From NCBI GenBank assembly GCA_002897635.1, contig BDTD01000009.1:54754-118753 (forward strand): DNA of 64,000 nt. Reading direction: 5' to 3'. Position 1 is the stretch's first letter. Every line of letters starts with the position of its first letter. Positions 13,396-48,198 of this stretch are shown here, one piece after another. Position numbers and translations under genes: made by a program. This DNA comes from a bacterium BMS3Abin11 (GTDB taxonomy: Bacteria > Pseudomonadota > Gammaproteobacteria > BMS3Bbin11). The notes under the pieces were generated by a model. It was given only the letters and a program-made list of their open reading frames with translations, searched no databases and was not told where the DNA came from.

Positions 13396-15969
13396 ATGGC
13401 AGCAGATCAGTCTCACACCCCCATGATGCAGCAATTTTTGCGCATCAAGGCTGAGCACCCGAAAATTCTGCTGTTTTACCGTATGGGTGACTTCTACGAA
13501 TTGTTCTTTGATGATGCAAAGAAAGCAGCACAACTGCTGGATATAACGCTGACTGCACGGGGGCAGTCTGCCGGAGAGCCCATCCCTATGTGCGGTGTCC
13601 CTTATCACGCAGCCGAGCAATATCTTGCCCGCCTAACCAGGGCAGGCGAATCCATAGCAATTTGTGAACAAATCGGGGATCCGGCCACAAGCAAAGGCCC
13701 TGTTGAACGCAAGGTCGTACGTGTTATTACGCCGGGCACACTGACCGATGAAAATTTGCTTGATGATAAAAAAGAAAATCTGTTGATGGCGATTTCTGAT
13801 GTCTCGGATGGATATGGCATTGCCTGGCTGGAACTGTCTTCGGGGCGCTTTCATGCCAGACATTTACCTGATGTGATGAATCTCTGCGCTGAAATTCAGC
13901 GATTGCAGCCAGCAGAAATACTGGCAGGTGAAAGCGCAGCAAATGAGCTGGCAGATAAGCTACCGGAAAATATCAACTTACAGCGAATACCTGACTGGTA
14001 TCTGGACACAAAGACAGCGACAGAATCACTGAAAAAACAGTTCAATGTACAGTCTCTAGCCGCATTCGATATTGAGGAAAGTCCTGCCGCCCTGCAGGCA
14101 GCAGGCGCTGTCATCCAGTATGCCCGTGATACTCAGGGTGATACCCTGCCGCATATCAACAATCTGAAAACAGAACGACATGGCAGTCATGTCATCATCG
14201 ATGCCGCATCACGACGAAATCTTGAGCTTGATATTAATCTCAGTGGAGGGAGAGAACATACCCTGTTATCGGTACTGGATACCTGTTCGACCTCAATGGG
14301 TTCACGCCTGTTAAGACGCTGGCTATCCAGTCCTGAGCGGAATATTTCACTGCTTCAGGAACGTCATCAAGCCATTGATACGATGATGAACTCAACAGAC
14401 ATAGATCATCTAAATGAAATACTTCGCCATATTGGCGATGTTGAGCGCGTCCTGCCTCGCATCGCCTTAAGAAGTGCTCGGCCCCGAGATTTAAGTACAC
14501 TACGGCAGGCATTGAAACAGCTACCGGGCATACATGATGCCCTTGGCGGTCTTGACTGCCCGCTGACAGGCAAGCTGTTAACGCAAATTGGGCACTATCC
14601 GCAGTTAACTGAGCACCTTGCAGGCGCCATAGTCGATGAACCACCCGCCTTACTACGCGATGGAGGCGTTATTAAACGAGGCTTTAATTCTGACCTGGAT
14701 AAACTGCAAACACTGAAAACAAATGCTGGCCAGTATTTGCTGGGTCTCGAGGCCCGAGAACGTGAACGCAGCGGTATTAACGGGCTTAAAGTGAAGTATA
14801 ACCGTGTGCACGGCTATTACATAGAAATCAGCCGCCTGCATTCTGAACAGGTTCCCGATGACTACACCCGCCGCCAGACGCTTAAAAACGTCGAACGTTT
14901 CATCACACCGGAACTCAAAAAATTTGAAGAACGTGCACTGAGCGCAAAGGAACGCGCGCTGGCACTGGAAAAACAACTCTATTCTGATTTGCTTGAACGC
15001 ATCAACCAGGATCTGCCGCTGTTACAGGCCACTGTGCTGGCTATCGCCACGATTGATGTCATTGCCTCCTCTGCGATCAATGCTAAAAGATTCAACCTGG
15101 TTGCTCCCAGCTATCTCTCTAACCCTGGTATTCACATCCAGGGCGGACGGCATCTGGTGGTCGAACAGAGTAGCCCGAAGCCGTTTGTCCCAAATGACTG
15201 TGAACTCAGTGATAAGACACGTATGCTGATCATCACAGGACCAAACATGGGTGGCAAATCCACCTATATGCGGCAAATCGCATTGATTGCCCTGCTCGCC
15301 TATACCGGCTCCTACCTGCCGGCAGATAAAGTAGAGATTGGTCCCATAGACAGAATATTCACTCGCATCGGGGCATCCGATGACCTGGCCAGTGGCCGCT
15401 CAACCTTCATGGTGGAAATGACAGAAACGGCAACTATATTGCGTAATTCAACAGCCGAAAGTCTGGTCATACTGGATGAAATTGGTCGTGGCACATCCAC
15501 CTTCGACGGACTGTCTCTGGCCTGGGCCTGCGCAGAAGAACTGGCCGGCAAGATTCGGGCATTCACCCTCTTCGCAACCCATTATTTTGAACTGACCAAC
15601 CTCAGCGAGGAGCTTGGTAGTGTACAGAACGTACATCTCACCGCAGTAGAGACTAATGACAGTATTACATTTCTCTACGAAGTACAGGATGGCCCCGCCA
15701 GCCAGAGTTATGGACTACAGGTGGCTTCACTTGCTGGTGTTCCTCAGGCAGTTATTGCGATGGCAAAAAGTAAATTGCTACAGCTTGAGAAAGAACTGGT
15801 GAAACATAGTGATGGTCATCAGCTTTCCATCTTTGACACTATCGATGCAGATGAAGATAAACAATCTGACAGCTTCGTTGAAGAAATTGCAGCCTTAGAC
15901 CCCGATAGAATGTCGGCGCGCGAAGCGCTGGATCTGATTTATCGATGGAAGGAGAAAATCCGGGGTTAA
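13396..15969 (+). CDS. mutS: DNA mismatch repair protein MutS
   Basis: 857 aa, TPMMQQF...[11 protein letters not shown] at the N-terminus, Walker [23 protein letters not shown]. Preceded by a solo family-A terminus AAGGGCACCTCTAC. Confidence 0.95.
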
Positions 15970-15982
15970 AGACATAAAGAGA

Positions 15983-16004
15983 CCCCCCGGCAACCGTGCC
16001 GGGG
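15983..16004. terminator. hairpin shared by convergent mutS and the beta-helix gene
   Basis: CCCCCCGGCAACCGTGCCGGGG stem-loop. On the minus strand it is followed by a T-rich tract. Duplicated at 16963-16984. Confidence 0.5.
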
Positions 16005-16024
16005 AAGCAAACCGGTGATCGTTA

Positions 16025-16867
16025 TCAGTTATTGGTACCCACAGAGGTACCACCGGTAAACGGTATGGTGACATTGCTGGTGAGGTTGTCCATGTACTTG
16101 CCGCGGGCGCGGTCGTAGTAAATCCCATAATACACCCTGGTGATGCGGTTACCAACAACCAGCACATCGTTGGAATTTTCGATGCTTATCCCACGGGCGT
16201 TTCCGTTGCTGGGGGGGGGAACATCATCGATGCGGTTGCCCTCCACCACGGCGCCATTGGAAGAAAGAACCAACCCATATCCTCCAAAGCCGGCGGGTGT
16301 CGCCGCCGTGCCGCTGATGTCATTGTTGAGAGCCCGCCCTCCAGAGCCTCCGAGGCGGATACCATAGGCAGAGCTGTTCACCGTCGAGCCACCGGTATCT
16401 ACCACCCGGTTGCGGCGCACGATGTTGTCGCTGCCCTGGATATGTATCCCCATGAAGGTATTCCTGTCGGCGAGGATGTCTTCGATCAGATGGCCCTGGG
16501 AGGTGTAGGGGGGGGAGCTGTTATCCAGCAAGATTCCCTGGTAAAACCCGCGGATGGTGCCGTTACGGATGGTGATTTTCTTGCGATTCGAGGCATAGAT
16601 ACCGTTGACCGTAGTCCCGACTCCGGCGGGCTTACCGCCGAGCTTCCAGCCATTGAGGTCGATGGTGACGTTGTTGGCCTGGATCTCAATAGCATTGCCC
16701 GAGGTCATATTGGTTTTCAGGCTCCCGGTGAGGCAGTAGACTCCCTGGCTGGTGATGACAGTGGGCAGCGTAGTGATGGGAGTACAATTTACCGTCTCCG
16801 CCCAGGCAGCGGGGACAGCCAGCAACAGGATGGTCAGTTTCAGGTATTTGATTAGTCTTATTTTCAT
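16025..16867 (-). CDS. secreted right-handed parallel beta-helix repeat protein, candidate phase-variable
   Basis: Signal peptide (LLLAVPAAWAET). Repeated NxxIxxN / GxxxxxN beta-helix rungs. Two coding-strand poly-C tracts: C9 (16211-16219) encoding PPP and C8 (16518-16525) encoding PP. Confidence 0.7.
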   Translation of the reverse strand: MKIRLIKYLKLTILLLAVPAAWAETVNCTPITTLPTVITSQGVYCLTGSLKTNMTSGNAIEIQANNVTIDLNGWKLGGKPAGVGTTVNGIYASNRKKITIRNGTIRGFYQGILLDNSSPPYTSQGHLIEDILADRNTFMGIHIQGSDNIVRRNRVVDTGGSTVNSSAYGIRLGGSGGRALNNDISGTAATPAGFGGYGLVLSSNGAVVEGNRIDDVPPPSNGNARGISIENSNDVLVVGNRITRVYYGIYYDRARGKYMDNLTSNVTIPFTGGTSVGTNN

Positions 16868-16956
16868 GTTTTTCTCCTTTATTCAGTCAGATCAGGATAC
16901 ACCCGGATACACCCAGCAGCAAACTGACACATTGATCTATGCCAATGAAAAAGAGA

Positions 16957-17160
16957 CCCCCCGGCAACCGTGCCGGGGGAAGCAAACCGGTGATCGTTAT
17001 CAGTTATTGGTACCCACAGAGGTACCACCGGTAAACGGTATGGTGACATTACTGGTGAGGTTATCCATGTACTTGCCGCTGGAGCGGTCGTAGTAAATCC
17101 CAAAATCCGCCCTAGTAATGCGTTTACCGGCAGCCAGCATATCGTTGGAAAAGAGGATGG
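16957..17160 (-). pseudogene. truncated duplicate of the 3' end of the beta-helix gene
   Basis: Encodes ...SNDMLAAGKRITRADFGIYYDRSSGKYMDNLTSNVTIPFTGGTSVGTNN*, nearly identical to the last about 50 aa of the intact gene. Includes the duplicated terminator hairpin. The upstream sequence is unrelated. Confidence 0.6.
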
Positions 17161-17261
17161 GTATACGTGGGCCTTTAGGTTTTTTTTGCGATAGATTTTG
17201 CGTTCACACTGAGGATTTTAACGACTCGCGATATGATCTCACTGCTTGTTGGACTGCCCTG

Positions 17262-17331: not shown

Positions 17332-18060
17332 TTAACCCTGATGATCCAACAGTTTAATCAACTGATCTGCGGGTATGAAGCCCGGTAAAATTTTGCCATT
17401 CTCAAGGATCAAAGTAGGCGTACCGGTAACGCCAATCTTCTGACCCAGCTCGAATTGCTCTAGCACCGGGTTGTCACAGGTTTTCGCCTCAAGCGCACTC
17501 CCTTCTTTTGCCATCCCAAGGGCCTTTTTCTGGTCAACGGCGCACCAAACAGAAACAGATTTTATGAATGTTGGTGATCCAGGACCAGCCCGTGGATACA
17601 TCAGATAACGTACCGTAACACCCGCCTTATTCAGTTTAGGCACTTCCTTATGCAACATTGCGCAATATGGACAATCCACATCGGTAAATACAGTAATCGT
17701 ATGCCGGGTTTTCCCCTCTGCAGGAAATACGATCATTTTTTTCTCATCGTAGCCCTCAATCAACTGCCGGGTTACGTTGTTTTTTGTCTTTTCTGTCAGG
17801 TTTATTTTATCTTCCAGATCGATGATGCTGCCATCGACTATGTAACGGCCATCCTGAGAGATATACAGCACCCTTCCATCGCCAATAAATTCATACAGGC
17901 CCGAAATGGGGGTGGCTTTTACTGAGCTAGCATCATAGCCAGGAACAACGATATCGAGCCGCTTTTTGATAGCAGCGGGTATTTCTGTTGCCAGTGCACT
18001 GTTCATCAGTAAAAAAATCGCCAGAGAGAGAGCAAATGATTTAAATATGGTTTGTTTCAT
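17332..18060 (-). CDS. dsbC: periplasmic thiol:disulfide interchange protein, DsbC/DsbG family
   Basis: Signal peptide, an N-terminal dimerisation region, a thioredoxin fold with CPYC active site, 242 aa. Confidence 0.8.
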   Translation of the reverse strand: MKQTIFKSFALSLAIFLLMNSALATEIPAAIKKRLDIVVPGYDASSVKATPISGLYEFIGDGRVLYISQDGRYIVDGSIIDLEDKINLTEKTKNNVTRQLIEGYDEKKMIVFPAEGKTRHTITVFTDVDCPYCAMLHKEVPKLNKAGVTVRYLMYPRAGPGSPTFIKSVSVWCAVDQKKALGMAKEGSALEAKTCDNPVLEQFELGQKIGVTGTPTLILENGKILPGFIPADQLIKLLDHQG

Positions 18061-27942: not shown

Positions 27943-29196
27943 CTATTCGTAAACAGGCCGTTCGGCGCAAAGTTCAGTTACCTTAACCCTGGTCTGTGAG
28001 GTAACTGTTTCATCGCTGATGTTGTCGAGGATATCACACATCCAGCCGGCTAGATTACGAGAATCTTCCTCTGTAAAACCACGAGTAGTGGTTGCTGCTG
28101 TTCCAATTCGAATTCCGCTGGTCACAAAAGGTGACTGGGGATCATTGGGTACTGCATTTTTATTGACTGTTATATTGGCCCGGCCAAGCGCAGCCTCTGC
28201 CTCTTTGCCGGTAATTTCCTGTTTTATCAGGTCAATCAACATCAGATGATTGTCGGTACCACCTGAAACTATGCGGTATCCTCTTTCGATGATAGTTTCT
28301 GCCATGGCCCTGGCATTTATCACGACCTGATGTTGATAATCCTTGAATCCAAGATCCAGCGCTTCCTTAAAAGCAACAGCCTTGGCGGCAATAACATGCA
28401 TCAGCGGACCGCCCTGTGTGCCCGGAAAAACAAGAGAATTGATCTTTTTCTCGATAGCTTCATTGCTTCTGGCAAGGATGATTCCCCCCCTGGGACCACG
28501 CAGAGTTTTGTGAGTCGTTGAAGTCGTCACATCAGCAATGGCTACAGGATTGGGGTATTCACCAGTGGCAACCAGACCCGCTACATGGGCCATATCAACC
28601 ATCAAATAGGCACCAACACTGTCAGCAATATCACGAAAATGCTGCCAGTCTACAATTCGGGAATAAGCACTAAAACCGGCAATGATCATCTTCGGATGAT
28701 GTTCATTCGCCAGTCGTTCAACCTCATCATAATCAATTTCGTCAGTATCTGCGCTCAGACCATACTGCACTGCATTAAACAATTTGCCCGAAAAATTCAC
28801 TTTAGAACCATGGGTAAGATGGCCGCCGTGTGCCAGACTCATACCCAGTATTGTTTCACCTGGCTTCAGTAGTGCCAGATATACTGCGGCATTGGCCTGT
28901 GAACCGGAATGTGGTTGTACATTGGCATAATCAGCACCGAATAATTCCTTAACACGGTCAATGGCCAGTTGCTCGGCGATATCGACATACTCGCAGCCAC
29001 CATAGTAGCGTCGCCCCGGGTAGCCTTCTGCATATTTGTTAGTTAATACCGAACCCTGAGCCTCCATCACCCGCGGACTGGCATAATTTTCAGAGGCGAT
29101 CAGTTCAATATGATTTTCCTGACGCATCTTCTCATCTTCAATTGCCGCGGCCAGTTCATCATCATAACCGGCAATTTTCATGTCTTTACTGAACAT
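27943..29196 (-). CDS. glyA: serine hydroxymethyltransferase
   Basis: SHMT motifs ([14 protein letters not shown]). Likely starts at the internal MFSKD Met of the longer ORF. Confidence 0.95.
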
Positions 29197-29251
29197 ATCT
29201 ACTCCACATTTATAACTCAATGGTGCCTCTGGTTAATTTAGACAAAGGCGA

Positions 29252-41745: not shown

Positions 41746-42682
41746 CCCGACTGTTGCTGAGGCACAGATCTACCAGGTCGTCGAGGCGCGCGGTCCCGGC
41801 ACACATCACGGTATCCGCGCCACCCCAGTAAATCTTTACGCCGCCGTCGTCATCCGCGACTGCACCGCAGGTAAAAACGACGTTGTGTACATAGCCCGTG
41901 ATCTCCCAGGGATCCTCTGGGGCTAGCACCCATTCATCCGAAACGCCGATAATCTTCGCCGGATTGGCAAGATCGTGCAGCGCCACGCCGAGACGATAGA
42001 CTGCCCCGTCCATGGTCTCGAATACCCCGTGGTAGATGCTGAGCCAGCCGCGTTCGGTGCGGATCGGTGTCGCACCGGGACCGATCTTCGACTCGTCCCA
42101 GTGATACGGCACCGGCTTCATCACCACCTCGGAATCGCCCCAGTGCACCAGGTCCGGCGACCATGACAGCCACACGGACCAGGGGCTGATCTCCGAATGC
42201 GGTCGGTCCAGGCGGGCGTAGCGGCCGTTGAACCGCTGCGGAAAGATAACGACATTGCGCATGTCCGCCTGGGTGATCAACGCCACGCGCTCAATGGATC
42301 GGAAATCACAGGTCCTGGCCAGCCCGATACGCACACCGTGGCGCGAATAGGCGCTGTAGGTAATCAGGTATTCCCCGTCTATACACGAGATTCTGGGGTC
42401 CTCCACCCCAAAAGCCTCGTATTCACCAAAGGCGCCATCTGTCGACGGCACCAGGAACGGCTCCGGGCCGACCGTAAATTTGAAGCCGTCCTCACTCTCG
42501 GCGATGCCGATGATCGACCGGCCGCTACGCAGGTGGGATCGAAACAGCATGATGGTGCGGCCGTCGTATTGTGTCATGCCGGCGTTGTGCACGGTCTCCA
42601 CCGGGTAGGGGATGTCGTCCCGCGTAAGGATCGGGTTGTCCGGACAGCGTTCGATGATTGGCGGTGGTTTAGCTGCGGTCAT
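41735..42682 (-). CDS. GH130 family glycoside hydrolase / beta-mannoside phosphorylase-like
   Basis: Five-bladed beta-propeller GH130/DUF377 signature (NPIL...DIPY, FNAG, EDPRI, YSAY, PWE). The start ATG is preceded by GGAGG. Overlaps the upstream gene's stop by 14 nt. Confidence 0.75.
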   Translation of the reverse strand: MTAAKPPPIIERCPDNPILTRDDIPYPVETVHNAGMTQYDGRTIMLFRSHLRSGRSIIGIAESEDGFKFTVGPEPFLVPSTDGAFGEYEAFGVEDPRISCIDGEYLITYSAYSRHGVRIGLARTCDFRSIERVALITQADMRNVVIFPQRFNGRYARLDRPHSEISPWSVWLSWSPDLVHWGDSEVVMKPVPYHWDESKIGPGATPIRTERGWLSIYHGVFETMDGAVYRLGVALHDLANPAKIIGVSDEWVLAPEDPWEITGYVHNVVFTCGAVADDDGGVKIYWGGADTVMCAGTARLDDLVDLCLSNSRAPW

Positions 42683-44015
42683 AGTCATCCTCCAGCCGGA
42701 TAATATCGTCTTCCCCGAAATAATCTCCCATCTGCACCTCGACCAGAACCAGCGGGATATCACCGGGGTTCGTGATCCTGTGCACTGCACCCTTTGGGAC
42801 ATCCACGGACTGCCCCGGCCTGAGCGGGATTTCCTGATCCCCCACGGTGACCAGCGCTTCGCCACTGACCACGGTCCAGTGCTCGGCCCGGCGCCGGTGC
42901 TTCTGCAGGCTCAGCCGCTGGCCCGGTTGGACGATGATCTCCTTGATTTTGTGATCATCCCGCTCGAGCAGGTTTTCATAGTGTCCCCACGGCCGATAGT
43001 TCTCCCGCTGGTCGAGGATGCTCTGGTAGACCTCCAGGTAGGCGCGTGCCATGTGCCGGCTGGTAAAGCGCTGTTCCACCTCGTCCCGGCAGGCGCGCCG
43101 GTCGAGCGAATCAATCCTGTCCACCGCCTGTACCGCGGCGTTCACATCGGCCACGATGAATCCCGTCTGGCCGTCGCGAATGAGTTCCGGCATTGAGCCC
43201 CGCCCATAGGCGATCACCGGCGTGCCACAGGCCATGGACTCGACCACGCTCAACCCGAACGGTTCGTCGAAGTGAATCAGGTGCAACAACCCCAGCGCAC
43301 CGCCCAGAAGTTCCTGTCTCTTCTCCGGCCCGACGGAGCCAACATATTCCACCATGGATCCATCGATGTGCGGCTCGACCTGTTCCTGGAAGTATGCCTC
43401 GTCCTGCACGATCCCGGCAATCACCAGCCGTAGTCCGGCCCTGCGCGCCACCTCAATGGCATCGTGGACACCCTTATGGTGGTGGATACGCCCGAAGAAC
43501 AACAGGTAGTCTCCCGCGTCTTCGCGGTAGGGGAATTGTGCGAGATCGATGCCATGATGGATGGTTGCGGCGTAATCGAGTTCACAGCTCCTGTCGGCCT
43601 CACTAATGGCCACATAATAGGTGCTGTCATTGTACTTTTTATAAACGGGCAAAATCGACGGCGAAGAGAATCCATGGATCGTCGTGACCAGCGGTGTAGG
43701 GGTAAAACCGCTGTAACTGAGCGGCAGAAAATCGAACTGGTTGTGGATGAGGTCGAACTCATCCGCCCGCCTGAACACCTCGGCGATATGCAGGCATTCC
43801 CAGACCTTGGGATCAATCGAGGGGTCTTCTGAGTAAGGGCGTTCACAAACCCAGGAAAGTTTACCACGGGTAATGGAATCCCCGGTCGCAAACAGTGTCA
43901 CATCGACACCCATCGCCACCAGCTGTTCTGTCAGGAGGCTGACCACATTTTCCCACGGCCCGTAATGGCGTGGGGGTGTGCGCCAGGACAAGGGACTCAA
44001 CATCGCAATCTTCAT
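42669..44015 (-). CDS. GT4 glycosyltransferase fused to a C-terminal mannose-6-phosphate-isomerase-type cupin
   Basis: GT-B/GT4 core (E..GG motif region, EPFGLSVVESMACGTPVIA) followed by the cupin HRRRAEHWTVVSGEALVTVGDQEIPLRPGQSVDVPKGAVHRITN. Confidence 0.7.
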   Translation of the reverse strand: MKIAMLSPLSWRTPPRHYGPWENVVSLLTEQLVAMGVDVTLFATGDSITRGKLSWVCERPYSEDPSIDPKVWECLHIAEVFRRADEFDLIHNQFDFLPLSYSGFTPTPLVTTIHGFSSPSILPVYKKYNDSTYYVAISEADRSCELDYAATIHHGIDLAQFPYREDAGDYLLFFGRIHHHKGVHDAIEVARRAGLRLVIAGIVQDEAYFQEQVEPHIDGSMVEYVGSVGPEKRQELLGGALGLLHLIHFDEPFGLSVVESMACGTPVIAYGRGSMPELIRDGQTGFIVADVNAAVQAVDRIDSLDRRACRDEVEQRFTSRHMARAYLEVYQSILDQRENYRPWGHYENLLERDDHKIKEIIVQPGQRLSLQKHRRRAEHWTVVSGEALVTVGDQEIPLRPGQSVDVPKGAVHRITNPGDIPLVLVEVQMGDYFGEDDIIRLEDDYDRS

Positions 44016-44327
44016 AAAAGAGGCCTGCGTGAACACCTGCGCGCGATCCACGCGCCAGCGGGGTGTTGTTATGATCAGGAACAAATCTGATAGCACAGTA
44101 ACACGATTTGCCTGACGGGCTACAATAACAAAACACCTGACAAAACGAAACCACCGCCCATTCAGATAAGGCTTGGACAGGGTGGAAATTTTACCCTTGC
44201 TGCCGCTAAAGATAGTATAGTGTGTTGAAACAAAAATAGTCTAATCTATTGCCAATTCAACTATAATCCGATATAGCCTGCCACGCAGACCGAACCAGGC
44301 GCAGAGGGCTTGTACCACGTGGAAGCA

Positions 44328-45812
44328 ATGAAAATGGAAAGCAGACCTGACCCCACCACTCCACTCGCGCGGCGCAAGTCGATCGTGATGAAGGCGAAGA
44401 TCAGTCGCGTCATTACCCGGCCGTATCTGCCGTCCGGTGAAGAACGCATCCAAAAAGTTATCCAGCGGGTGTTGAGCCTGGACGAGAATGAGGCGGATAC
44501 GGTGCTGGAAACCCTCTTGCAGGATTTTTCCCACCGCCACCGCTACTTCAGGGAGACCCTGGAGCAAAATTTTGCACGGGTAGCTGACTTTTTGCCGGAT
44601 ATCGATCAGGTATCGAAGCAACGGCGGCTTCTGATCGGCGCGTACTTTACCGCGGAATACTCAGTGGAGGCGGCGGCGTTGTTCAATCCCTCAATCGTTC
44701 AGGTTCCGAACCAGGAGGCGGATCCTGAAGGCACCTGCCGGTTTGTTATGAGCTTCCGTGCCACTGGTGAAGGCCACATCTCCTCCATCGAGTTTCGCAG
44801 CGGGGTTATCGATACCAACAACGATATCTACTTCGATGGCCTGAGCGACTACGTAGCAACCCCGGAAATCCACCCCAACCCAAGCTATGACCGGCACCTG
44901 TTTCGGCTGAAACTCCAGGAGATGGGGGCGAATAATGCGGTAACGCACCAGCTTCTAAACAGGCTGCCGGACAATTTCACCTTCAACGATCTGCAGGGAA
45001 AGATCGCCGAACTCCAGAACAACGGCCAGTTTCCGCCACAGGAGCAGACGGATGCCATTGACATGGCAATGTGGCTGGCGCAATCCAATTACCAGATTTT
45101 GTTTCGCAAGGAACACGCAATTTCCGAGCGGGTGATCTTTCCCGTGTCGGAATCCGAGCGCAAGGGGATCGAGGATGCCCGCTTTGTACGTTTCGTCGAC
45201 GACGACGGCACGGCGGTCTACTACGCCACCTATACCGCGTACAACGGAGAGACGATCCTGCCGCAACTCATCGAGACCCGCGATTTCCTCTCCTTCAAGC
45301 ACATTACGCTGAATGGAGCCCAGGTACAGGGCAAGGGCATGGCCCTGTTCCCGAGAAAGATTGGGGGCAACTACGTGATGCTGTCGCGCCAGGATGGTGA
45401 GAACAATACCATCATGTTCTCGGACAACCTGCACTTCTGGCAGCAGGCCCAGATTCTTCAGGAGCCTGAGTTCCCCTATGAATTCATACAGATGGGCAAC
45501 AGCGGCTCACCCATCGAGATGCCCGAAGGCTGGCTGGTCGTGACCCACGGGGTGGGTCCGATGCGGACCTACAGCCTCGGCATCGAGTTGCTCGACCTGG
45601 ACGACCCGACCCGGATCATCAACCGGATTGAGGAGCCGATCCTGGTGCCGAATGCGTATGAGCGGGAGGGGTATGTCCCGAACGTGGTTTACAGTTGTGG
45701 CGCACTCATCCACCAGGACGAATTGATCATCCCCTACGCCTCGGGCGACCAGCGCTGCGGCATAGCAACCCTGCAGCTACCACAGCTGATGGCCAGGCTG
45801 ACAGCACGGTAG
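44328..45812 (+). CDS. GH130-like beta-propeller protein with an uncharacterised about 250-aa N-terminal extension
   Basis: C-terminal about 240 aa shows GH130/DUF377-like blocks (GIEDARFVRFVDDDG...YYATYTAYNG, GWLVVTHGVG, PNVVYSCGA). I recognise no family for the N-terminal half. The ATG at 44328 follows a GGAAG RBS; the listed ORF starts at an upstream TTG. Confidence 0.6.
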   Translation: MKMESRPDPTTPLARRKSIVMKAKISRVITRPYLPSGEERIQKVIQRVLSLDENEADTVLETLLQDFSHRHRYFRETLEQNFARVADFLPDIDQVSKQRRLLIGAYFTAEYSVEAAALFNPSIVQVPNQEADPEGTCRFVMSFRATGEGHISSIEFRSGVIDTNNDIYFDGLSDYVATPEIHPNPSYDRHLFRLKLQEMGANNAVTHQLLNRLPDNFTFNDLQGKIAELQNNGQFPPQEQTDAIDMAMWLAQSNYQILFRKEHAISERVIFPVSESERKGIEDARFVRFVDDDGTAVYYATYTAYNGETILPQLIETRDFLSFKHITLNGAQVQGKGMALFPRKIGGNYVMLSRQDGENNTIMFSDNLHFWQQAQILQEPEFPYEFIQMGNSGSPIEMPEGWLVVTHGVGPMRTYSLGIELLDLDDPTRIINRIEEPILVPNAYEREGYVPNVVYSCGALIHQDELIIPYASGDQRCGIATLQLPQLMARLTAR

Positions 45813-45828
45813 GGAATGGTAGTCGTCG

Positions 45829-48198
45829 CTATTCCGACGATACTTTCTGAACATCAAGCCGGGTGGGCTCTTCCTCCGGTGTAACCCGATCCCAGCTGCG
45901 GTGGTTATAGACGGCGAGCAGCGCCATGAGCCAGCAAAGCGTGGACTCTGCGCCCTGATTTTCATTCGCGCCCTGCGCTTCCAGCCCGTCCCGGCAGCCG
46001 CCGGTCGCATAATCGCAGAGCGGAACCCCCAGATCGTTCTCGCCTTGGTACCAGTTGAGACAACGGTAGGCATAGGTAATCCATTCCTCATCCCGCGTGC
46101 AGTTGAATGCCTCGATACAGGCGTCCACCATCGCGGCCGCCTCGATGGGTTGTTGATCGAATCGCGCTTTTTCGCCGCCTCTGGGAAACCAGCCGTGATT
46201 GCCGATAGCGACAAAGTGCCGGCCCTTCTCATCGGTCTGAACCTGCTTCAACCAGTCGAGAGAGCGCAACCCCATCTCCAGCATCTCGCTGTCGGGAAGC
46301 CACTGCCCAGACAGCAGTAAAGCCTGTGGCAACCGGGCATTGTCGTAGGTCAGGATGTTGTCACACCAGGGCCAGTCTTCGCTGGCGCACCCCAAGGGCA
46401 CTTCCTGCGGGGCGAAATCCCTGAACCGCTGCATCAGTCGTTCCGAGAGTATCTTGCGCATCATTTTCGCGCGGCTGTCCCCGCTGTAGCGGCCCAGATA
46501 GGCATGAATACCGATAATGGCGAAGGCAATCGCCCGTGGGTGGGTGAAATGTTCGGTGGCGTCCAGTGCACGATGGAACAGGTCGACCGAAAAACCCACC
46601 TGCCCCTTATCCCGCCCCAATGCCACTGCGACGCCCAGCCCCCACACCGCACGACCGTGGGAGTCCTCCGAACCTGTTCCCTCTAGCCAGTAGCGATCAT
46701 AGGACATAAAGTTGCGGAAGCGGCCGGTCTGGTCATTGAAGGCGTGACCCAGAAAACTCAGATAAGTGGCGGCAAGGCCGCTTTGTGCTGAATCCAGAGG
46801 CTGGAGGTCCTGTAGCGTGACCGCGACGATCAACGCGCGGGCATTATCGTCCACGCAATAGCCGTGTGTCCGGTCTGCAACCGTGTACTTGGCGTGTTGC
46901 AACATACCCGTGTCATCGGTCATCCGGCGTAAATAGTCCAGCTTGATCTCCGGTAGCCGTTGCTGGCGTAGTCCGAGGGTCTCCAGCCCGCGCCTGGGTA
47001 CGTTCTTCCTCAATCGCTGTCGTTTGGCTTCTGCAAAGGTGTCGAGATAGCGGCGGCCTACATCACTCCAGACCATTTTGCGACCGTATTGATAGGCCCT
47101 CTCCTGGATGGCGCGGCACTCATCGGGATGATCCAGGAGGTCGATGACTTCCCGCGCCAGAGCGGCCTGATCCCGGAATGGAACCAGCCTGCCCCGATCA
47201 TCAGCGAGCAACTCCTGAGCGTGCCAGAAGGGTGTGGATATCACCGCTTTGCCCATCCCAAGCGCATAGGCAAGCGTGCCGGAAATAATCTGCGCCTCAT
47301 TCAGGTACGGAGTGACATAAATATCTGCCACACCGATAAACTCCAGCAGATCTTCGTCGGCAACGAAACGATCATGAAAAACAATGTGCTCCGAAACGCC
47401 GAGTTCTTTTGCACGCCTGTGAAGGCTGTTTCTGTAATCCTCCCCATCTTCCATCTTAAGGTGCGGATGGGTGGCGCCTACCACCATATAGATGACCTGC
47501 GGGTGGGCCTTCACGATCTCCGGCAAGGCATCTATGACCACCTCAATGCCCTTGCCCGGCGAAAGCAGGCCGAAGGTCAGGATGACTTTCTTTCCGGATA
47601 CGCCGAACTTGTCCTTGTAGGCATCGGATTTGACAAACGGCACGTCAGGGATGCCATGATGTATAAGGACAATCTTCTCCTCCGGCACCTGGTAGATATC
47701 GCGCAGGAATTCGACTGAGCGTTCACTCATCACCACCAGCCGGTCTGAGAACTCGGCAAGTTGCATCATGATGTGCCGGTCCTGAAGGTTCGGATCCTTC
47801 AGGATTGTGTGCAGAGTCGTCACAACCGGCATATTGAGATTACGCAGCAGCTCGATAATAAAGCTGCCCCGCTTGCCACCAAAAATACCGTATTCATGCT
47901 GGAGACAGATCACATCCACCTGGTTAAGGTTGCATAAGTCGGCCGCCAGGCTGTATTCGTTCAGTTGAGACTGGTTGATCTCGAAGCGCACCTGAGACGG
48001 GTAGGAATAGCCTGTTGGCCGGTCGTTCATTGCGACCGCCCAACAGGCTTTGTCCGGTGCATTCAGCGCGATGGATTCAAGCAGGTGGGTGGTGAACGTG
48101 GCGATACCACACTGCCGGGGGAGGTGGTTGCCGATGAGGACGATCGACTTGAGAGCCTCCCATTCTGGTCTTGAGCCTGTCGTGCCGAAGTTATCCAT
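45829..48198 (-). CDS. 789-aa fusion: N-terminal GT4 glycosyltransferase plus C-terminal about 400-aa alpha/alpha-barrel glycoside-hydrolase-like domain
   Basis: N-terminal half has GT4 features (GG-loop, FGLLSPGKGIEV, E..G..V.ST). The C-terminal half (HGYCVDDNARAL..., ENQGAEST) tentatively resembles (alpha/alpha)6 hydrolases. Confidence 0.6.
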   Translation of the reverse strand: MDNFGTTGSRPEWEALKSIVLIGNHLPRQCGIATFTTHLLESIALNAPDKACWAVAMNDRPTGYSYPSQVRFEINQSQLNEYSLAADLCNLNQVDVICLQHEYGIFGGKRGSFIIELLRNLNMPVVTTLHTILKDPNLQDRHIMMQLAEFSDRLVVMSERSVEFLRDIYQVPEEKIVLIHHGIPDVPFVKSDAYKDKFGVSGKKVILTFGLLSPGKGIEVVIDALPEIVKAHPQVIYMVVGATHPHLKMEDGEDYRNSLHRRAKELGVSEHIVFHDRFVADEDLLEFIGVADIYVTPYLNEAQIISGTLAYALGMGKAVISTPFWHAQELLADDRGRLVPFRDQAALAREVIDLLDHPDECRAIQERAYQYGRKMVWSDVGRRYLDTFAEAKRQRLRKNVPRRGLETLGLRQQRLPEIKLDYLRRMTDDTGMLQHAKYTVADRTHGYCVDDNARALIVAVTLQDLQPLDSAQSGLAATYLSFLGHAFNDQTGRFRNFMSYDRYWLEGTGSEDSHGRAVWGLGVAVALGRDKGQVGFSVDLFHRALDATEHFTHPRAIAFAIIGIHAYLGRYSGDSRAKMMRKILSERLMQRFRDFAPQEVPLGCASEDWPWCDNILTYDNARLPQALLLSGQWLPDSEMLEMGLRSLDWLKQVQTDEKGRHFVAIGNHGWFPRGGEKARFDQQPIEAAAMVDACIEAFNCTRDEEWITYAYRCLNWYQGENDLGVPLCDYATGGCRDGLEAQGANENQGAESTLCWLMALLAVYNHRSWDRVTPEEEPTRLDVQKVSSE

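Follow-up and report, generated by a model that had tools for sequence, protein, structure and literature searches.

Two poly-C tracts in a CCC-biased beta-helix protein gene of bacterium BMS3Abin11: probably incidental runs in an unproven candidate for phase variation

The gene for a small exported beta-helix protein of bacterium BMS3Abin11 carries two uninterrupted homopolymers on its coding strand, a C8 tract (tract 1) and a C9 tract (tract 2), which are the only G/C runs of at least 8 nt in the 64-kb stretch of DNA analysed here (referred to as the window) and are both located within 843 nt. We consider it likelier, with a probability of roughly 0.55, that these tracts are a by-product of fast loop evolution and codon bias than that they constitute a selected switch. 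This reading is supported by the bias towards CCC, a codon-aware null model, shuffles of the window, the C runs found in relatives, the recurrence of Pro-Pro in homologues, the placement of the tracts in loops, their uniform lengths and an intact mutS. It is weakened by the occurrence of both runs in one gene, the lack of any run longer than C7 in other copies, the recent origin of the tracts, a high dN/dS, a variable upstream repeat, and tract lengths above the conventional cut-off. The proposal of the earlier note on this DNA that the gene is phase-variable thus stands in part: the lengths of the tracts, the truncation caused by ±1 slips and the lack of both tracts in the three closest relatives speak for it, but no length variation was seen in the available assemblies, and in bioinformatic terms the gene is a legitimate candidate for phase variation, though an unproven one.

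Table 1. Coordinates of the features discussed in the text (window positions, unless another locus is named)
Feature	Position	Strand	Remarks
Beta-helix CDS, 280 aa	16025..16867	(-)	ATG start, TGA then TAA stops; GBE07561.1 / HDZ78820.1, bacterium BMS3Abin11
Predicted Sec signal peptide, codons 1-23, MKIRLIKYLKLTILLLAVPAAWA	16799..16867	(-)	predicted cleavage before ETVNC; read from sequence by eye
Shine-Dalgarno AAGGAG, 6 nt 5' of ATG	16874..16879	(-)	sequence; conserved in L003, L024, L030
Tract 1, C8 on coding strand, TCC CCC CCC = S118 P119 P120	16508..16515	(-)	context AGC TCC CCC CCC TAC
Tract 2, C9 on coding strand, CCC CCC CCC = P217-P219	16211..16219	(-)	context GTT CCC CCC CCC AGC
Intrinsic terminator of beta-helix gene	15983..16006	(-)	10-bp stem, 4-nt loop, T-rich tail
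mutS, 857 aa, intact, convergent with beta-helix gene	13396..15969	(+)	ORF; Pfam MutS I-V + MutS_C on identical gene of L001
10-nt tandem repeat, GGGTGTATCC x2 in gene sense	16895..16914	(-)	between upstream palindrome and Shine-Dalgarno; TRF x2.0
Upstream palindrome CATTGGCATAGATCAATG (CATTGrCATAGATCAATG)	16930..16947	(-)	conserved in four-species alignment; TTGACA in three relatives
Pseudogene remnant, last 54 codons of paralogue	16950..17164	(-)	78% aa identity; duplicated terminator 16957-16980
dsbC (disulfide isomerase), upstream neighbour	17332..18060	(-)	Pfam DsbC_N + Thioredoxin_2; synteny in L003, L030, L040
Family locus with polysaccharide-type neighbours	L005 5754-12732		
Family locus with polysaccharide-type neighbours	L012 8049-9596		
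Family locus with polysaccharide-type neighbours	L043 3157-9100		

The earlier note had described the product as a secreted, pectate-lyase-like beta-helix protein with two N-terminal cysteines, encoded next to dsbC, and each of these points was borne out. The open reading frame is real and its product has an exact match in the protein collection. The predicted signal peptide retains an AWAET motif and a hydrophobic core across 31 homologues, and the structure model renders the N-terminus as a helix of low confidence; the two cysteines, C28 and C45, are invariant in the same 31 sequences. Matches above the curated cut-offs were obtained to PF05048 (NosD; 46.6 versus 23.6), PF13229 (Beta_helix; 45.7 versus 25.9) and TIGR03804 (29.4 versus 19.45), and an AlphaFold2 model (31 homologues; pLDDT 89.8, pTM 0.86) comprises about eight stacked rungs. 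The protein is a right-handed beta-helix with a predicted signal for export by the Sec system, and its mature form has approximately 257 residues. Its description as a surface protein found no support, the signal being of the Sec type only: neither a lipobox nor a recognisable anchor, C-terminal sorting signal or outer-membrane signal was found in the sequence, and the closest solved folds, the alginate C5-epimerases/lyases (8ja4, AlgE4 2pyg, AlgG 4nk8, 6kfn) and NosD (7o0y), comprise the periplasmic AlgG and NosD besides secreted enzymes. Compared to these proteins the present one is much shorter, and AlgG and NosD are without the tandem paralogue arrays and the hypervariable face that both characterise its family.

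This family is large and uncharacterised, with 836 homologues at E ≤0.001, and its members occur as single genes or in tandem arrays, with seven copies on L038, five on L031 and four on L026. Elsewhere they adjoin genes for sulfotransferases, a GT2 glycosyltransferase, UDP-glucose dehydrogenase, GDP-mannose dehydratase and a Wzz-like protein (Table 1), and this company hints at a role tied to (sulfated) extracellular polysaccharide. The conserved block S123-Q124-G125-H126...E129-D130 is a candidate catalytic site. As to cellular location and function we infer, as a best guess, a polysaccharide-binding or polysaccharide-modifying role. Identity with NosD itself was rejected, because TIGR04247, whose cut-off is 300 bits, gave a score of 28.7 and the PDB NosD profile matched at E = 0.036. 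No nos genes (nosZ, nosF, nosY) were among the neighbours in the window, which are suhB, mutS, dsbC, an SDF symporter and trxC, and the flanking proteins scanned at other family loci were heterogeneous and gave no nos-family match. A functional linkage to dsbC was likewise rejected, since the adjacency is confined to the clade of the window and not shared across the family. An origin from a defence system or a phage is unsupported by PADLOC and PHROGs, neither of which gave a match. Unlike the beta-helices of phage tailspikes and depolymerases (CBA120 TSP2, HK620), the protein has no trimerisation or particle-binding domain, and its gene resides in a chromosomal housekeeping context, dsbC-gene-mutS, that is conserved in four relatives. 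A full-text literature search for BMS3Abin11 found nothing.

The C9 tract had been reported by the earlier note as a G9 run of the forward strand encoding three prolines, which was confirmed. The G8 run that it had also reported does exist and encodes two prolines, but was placed at 16518-16525, 10 nt away from its actual position. Within the rung formed by residues 109-136, tract 1 occupies the loop that follows the first strand, directly ahead of the conserved SQGHLIEDI motif; tract 2 is located in a variable loop (residues 215-224) preceding the rung of residues 224-246, within the least confident internal block of the structure model. Both loops border the hypervariable face described below, and the tracts lie next to hypervariable sites. 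In silico, slippage by one nucleotide truncates the 280-residue protein in all cases: losses and gains of one C yield products of 126 and 182 residues for tract 1, and of 226 and 239 residues for tract 2, respectively, and all four products lose the conserved C-terminus. A cut-off of at least 7 G/C is used by PhasomeIt for calling putative phase-variable genes, and C8 as well as C9 exceed it, but such cut-offs also admit tracts that are perhaps too weakly mutable for effective switching (PMC6321876). The third-longest G/C homopolymer of the window, a C7 at 28484-28490 (G7 on the coding strand) inside the ORF 27943-29220 on the reverse strand, is exactly at this conventional limit.

Whether two such runs are unexpected depends strongly on the composition of the gene. 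In dinucleotide-preserving shuffles of the 64-kb window, the observed number of G/C runs of at least 8 nt was reached in 24 of 100 replicates and is not above chance, and under a first-order Markov model of the beta-helix gene the probability of two such runs is 0.007-0.012, which is modestly unusual. The gene had been described as one of moderate GC content; with 56% GC compared to 47% in the window, a GC3 of 0.71 and a C3 of 0.49 it is not, as most other window genes have a GC3 of about 0.35-0.50 and a C3 of 0.14-0.29. C-ending codons are used to an extreme, and CCC encodes 10 of 11 prolines compared to 130 of 702 (18.5%) in 51 other ORFs. The same bias, with C3 values of 0.50-0.54 and CCC dominant, is found in the orthologues of L003, L024 and L030. 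Because nearly every proline of the gene is encoded by CCC, runs of proline are written as uninterrupted C8 and C9. We quantified this with a codon-aware null model, in which the protein was kept fixed and codons were drawn either from the usage of the gene itself (excluding the tract codons) or from that of its orthologues. The probability of tract 2 reaching at least 9 nt was then 0.42-0.62, that of tract 1 reaching at least 8 nt was 0.08-0.11, and that of both was 0.04-0.08; with window-wide codon usage, the same simulation gave 5e-5 for both tracts. To a large extent the tracts therefore simply follow from writing S-P-P and P-P-P in a gene that favours CCC, and the earlier claim that they are statistically unexpected mostly dissolves once the codon bias is taken into account.

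The relatives of BMS3Abin11 allow the age of the tracts to be judged. The three closest are L003 (BMS9Abin25), L024 and L030, whose orthologues share 79%, 76% and 86% amino acid identity with the beta-helix protein, the last value applying to residues 1-145, at the end of which the contig ends. BMS9Abin25 belongs to the Arenicellales, family-level clade f__BMS3Bbin11, and originates from a deep-sea massive sulfide deposit (PMC11427306). All three have the synteny dsbC - 3' fragment - gene - mutS, and no G/C run of at least 7 nt was found in the gene of any of them. Their tract-1 site has the sequence AGC TAC CCC TAC or AGC CTC CCC TAC, so that tract 1 is missing even in L030, which shares 94% nucleotide identity over 6.7 kb. 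At the tract-2 site, where whole-codon indels occur in the loop among relatives, L003 reads AGC TCC CCC ATA and L024 AGC TCT AGC AGA. Since the tracts are absent from these close relatives, they are recent and were built on short pre-existing C runs. The wider family makes no general use of homopolymers: in 62 copies the longest C run measures 2-6 nt and the longest G run 3-7 nt, and none of the other family copies (62 + 6) has a C run longer than 7 nt or a PPP written as C9. The apparent frameshifts of L019, L039 and L007 occur away from homopolymers.

Taken together with the codon usage, this points to the following scenario, which we favour at the probability given above. Two loops at the edges of the hypervariable face would recently have gained S-P-P and P-P-P in the BMS3Abin11 lineage, and the codon bias would have turned these gains into poly-C tracts without any selection for a switch. 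In-frame (+3) slippage of pre-existing C4-C5 runs probably contributed; this slippage origin and the lack of selection for switching are what we infer from the pattern. The gene is in consequence prone to frameshifts, as a ±1 slip truncates the helix and removes its conserved C-terminal cap, and rare OFF cells are therefore to be expected.

Selection could also have acted on the prolines themselves, either for rigid polyproline loops beside the variable face or for EF-P-dependent translational pause sites, with the homopolymers being a neutral side effect. Changes of ±3 nt would then vary the length of a loop in frame and not switch the gene off. Both tract sites are indeed loops, P119 is nearly invariant among homologues, and 7 of 30 homologues have Pro-Pro or Pro-Pro-Pro at the tract-1 site, encoded by a mixture of codons, namely CCT CCT CCC (P0041), CCC CCT (in two), CCC CCA and AGC CCC CCC, a C7 (P0023), which argues that amino acids and not a DNA run are kept there; the C runs at this site form a continuum of 4, 6, 6, 6 and 7 nt. 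The whole-codon indels in the tract-2 loop agree with such selection as well. The PPP at tract 2, however, is unique to the BMS3Abin11 lineage, with V-S-S-G/P in relatives, and no ±3 variant exists in the protein collection, so that we regard selection for proline runs as an unlikely explanation. The same comparison bears on the contingency-locus interpretation, against which the commonness of Pro-Pro at the tract-1 site can be held. Proline codons with synonymous interruptions in relatives, which the earlier note had named as evidence against switching, are thus present in part of the homologues at tract 1 but not at tract 2.

If slippage at C8 and/or C9 reversibly switched the exported protein ON and OFF, and the resulting heterogeneity were selected, the tracts would constitute a contingency locus. 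We consider this possible but doubtful, and the same holds for the benefits that could be envisaged, for example escape from phages or predators, switching of attachment or processing of matrix. It leads one to expect heterogeneity of tract length. The earlier note had proposed to compare tract lengths among strains, and the available assemblies gave uniform values: C8 and C9 occur in the window, in the MAG contig L001, which matches it at 100% identity over 5.5 kb, and in the ENA contig L002, which differs by one mismatch in 1.66 kb. These assemblies are 99.9-100% identical, derive largely from one BioProject (PRJDB5792) and represent essentially one strain of an organism that is present in very few datasets, so that this is a weak test. 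In the same, essentially single-strain sampling, none of nine predicted variant products (four for ±1, one for -2 and four for ±3) was found by exact look-up in a collection of 15 billion proteins. The cluster at 90% identity contains the intact protein and two contig-end fragments only, and its representative P0122 (L042) is a chimera with an Illumina adapter that does not extend to the tracts. L040 and L041 (SRR7787331) are 100% identical to the window, end at window position 16636 without reaching either tract, and are uninformative on heterogeneity. Several independent contigs, among them L040, L041, L030 and L042, break inside the beta-helix gene, the two SRR7787331 assemblies at the same base, and such breaks may reflect strain microdiversity or low coverage.

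Since homopolymers are error-prone and all data are short-read metagenome assemblies, the runs might in principle have been generated by sequencing or assembly. We regard this as highly improbable, because the window, the TPA MAG contig L001 and the MEGAHIT-style ENA contig L002 agree in having C8 and C9, both tracts are in frame within an ORF of 280 codons that aligns end to end with its homologues, and the flanking codons differ from those of relatives beyond what an error in run length can produce.

In favour of a contingency locus are the tract lengths above the cut-off of at least 7 G/C (PMC6321876), the truncated products of ±1 slips, the confinement of the only two G/C runs of at least 8 nt in the window to one gene with a gene-level P of about 0.01, the lineage-specific and uninterrupted nature of tracts that 68 other copies lack, and the tandem amplification of the family. 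A further argument is the rate at which the protein evolves. Compared to L003 (4183-5031), the gene has a dN of 0.111, a dS of 0.118 and an omega of 0.94, and compared to L024 (536-1390) an omega of 0.83, whereas omega ranges from 0.07 to 0.21 in its five neighbours (suhB, mutS, dsbC, the symporter and trxC). Its dS is below that of four of the five (range 0.09-0.63), probably as a result of constraint on synonymous sites by the codon bias, and omega is therefore inflated; even so, its dN exceeds theirs 2-6 fold. Fast protein change combined with constrained synonymous sites could indicate high expression or recent exchange. All 25 sites with an entropy of at least 2.5 bits belong to the first strand of one rung after another or directly precede it (residues 86-252, window positions about 16112-16612), a pattern that marks one hypervariable face, the other strands being conserved. 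Amino acid differences from the orthologues are enriched 3-4 fold at these family-hypervariable sites (Fisher p = 2e-4 and 2e-3), which fits diversifying selection on a recognition face. With its raised dN/dS and this enrichment, the gene bears hallmarks of an arms race, and the enrichment is the strongest indirect argument for a contingency locus.

Against it, besides the lack of observed length polymorphism in the assemblies and the protein collection, are the positions of the tracts, which lie 42% and 77% of the way along the CDS and thus away from its 5' end, the codon bias, which accounts for most of the signal and may itself have lowered dS (0.12) and so inflated dN/dS, the unsupported surface exposure of the protein, and mutS, which is intact. 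This neighbour is convergent with the beta-helix gene (Table 1), and its intact ORF implies that the DNA mismatch-repair protein MutS is present.

The upstream region contains a second kind of repeat, which, as comparison of the relatives demonstrates, is unstable over evolutionary time and which can be counted in favour of a contingency locus. According to TRF, the 10-nt unit is present in 2.0 copies in the window and in 5.1 copies in L003 (4115-4164), while L024 (475-504) and L030 have 2.7 copies of an 11-nt unit. This repeat could be a regulator-binding array or a repeat that tunes transcription or acts in the 5'-UTR, and the palindrome farther upstream is possibly a -35 element or an operator; a scan for the sigma-70 consensus between the upstream terminator and the ATG revealed no promoter. 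The most far-reaching version of a contingency locus would combine these elements: a deep-sea chemolithoautotroph of free-living habit would abundantly export a beta-helix protein of a tandemly amplified family, whose one hypervariable, positively selected face would serve as a recognition surface for phages, predators, mineral or matrix polysaccharide, and this protein would be controlled by two recently evolved poly-C switches and perhaps tuned by the 10-nt repeat in its promoter or 5'-UTR. This composite is more speculative still than switching as such, and we consider it rather improbable.

The remnant of a paralogue between the gene and dsbC shares 92.5% nucleotide identity over 201 nt with the 3' end of the gene (15976-16175), so that a direct repeat flanks the live gene, and recombination between the two copies would delete it. 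Use of the remnant as a silent cassette for gene conversion was rejected. Orthologous fragments are present in L003, L024 and L030, they group by position across species with about 90% mutual identity, and the one in L003 is frameshifted, which identifies an old, decaying remnant. Within the window only, the last ~100 nt of gene and remnant are identical, which, judged from this identity, suggests local gene conversion.

The poly-G/C contingency loci of Campylobacter, Neisseria and Haemophilus resemble the present gene in several respects: they are uninterrupted G/C homopolymers of at least 7 nt in ORFs for exported proteins (PMC6321876), slips of ±1 truncate the product, the tract is not conserved in relatives, and the gene evolves fast. 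They differ in that no tract-length polymorphism is documented here, that mutS is present, that there are two tracts, one in the middle and one late in the gene, and that the codon bias offers a non-adaptive explanation. Moreover, the known loci belong to host-adapted pathogens, whereas BMS3Abin11 is an uncultured, free-living gammaproteobacterium of the chemolithoautotroph type, as judged from its relative (PMC11427306). If switching were real, a known mechanism would have been found in an unusual organism and gene family. It would represent a rare documented case in which homopolymers drive phase variation in a marine chemolithoautotroph that is uncultured, free-living and proficient in mismatch repair, extend bet-hedging by simple sequence repeats beyond host-adapted pathogens, and give a first starting point for functional study of small exported beta-helix proteins with a hypervariable face, a family that is widespread and unnamed. 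As it stands, the gene mainly illustrates that a strong gene-specific bias towards CCC can yield long homopolymers that pass the standard filters for phase variation, which is relevant to scans of metagenomes for contingency loci.

The beta-helix gene is not the only GC-rich segment of the window. An island at 42197-48198 (42.2-48.2 kb) has a GC content of 57-60% and a GC3 of 0.57-0.75 compared to about 0.4 elsewhere, and encodes a GT4/GT1 glycosyltransferase fused to a mannose-6-phosphate-isomerase C-terminal cupin, a GH130 phosphorylase-like protein and a GT1 protein of 789 residues. This island looks horizontally acquired.
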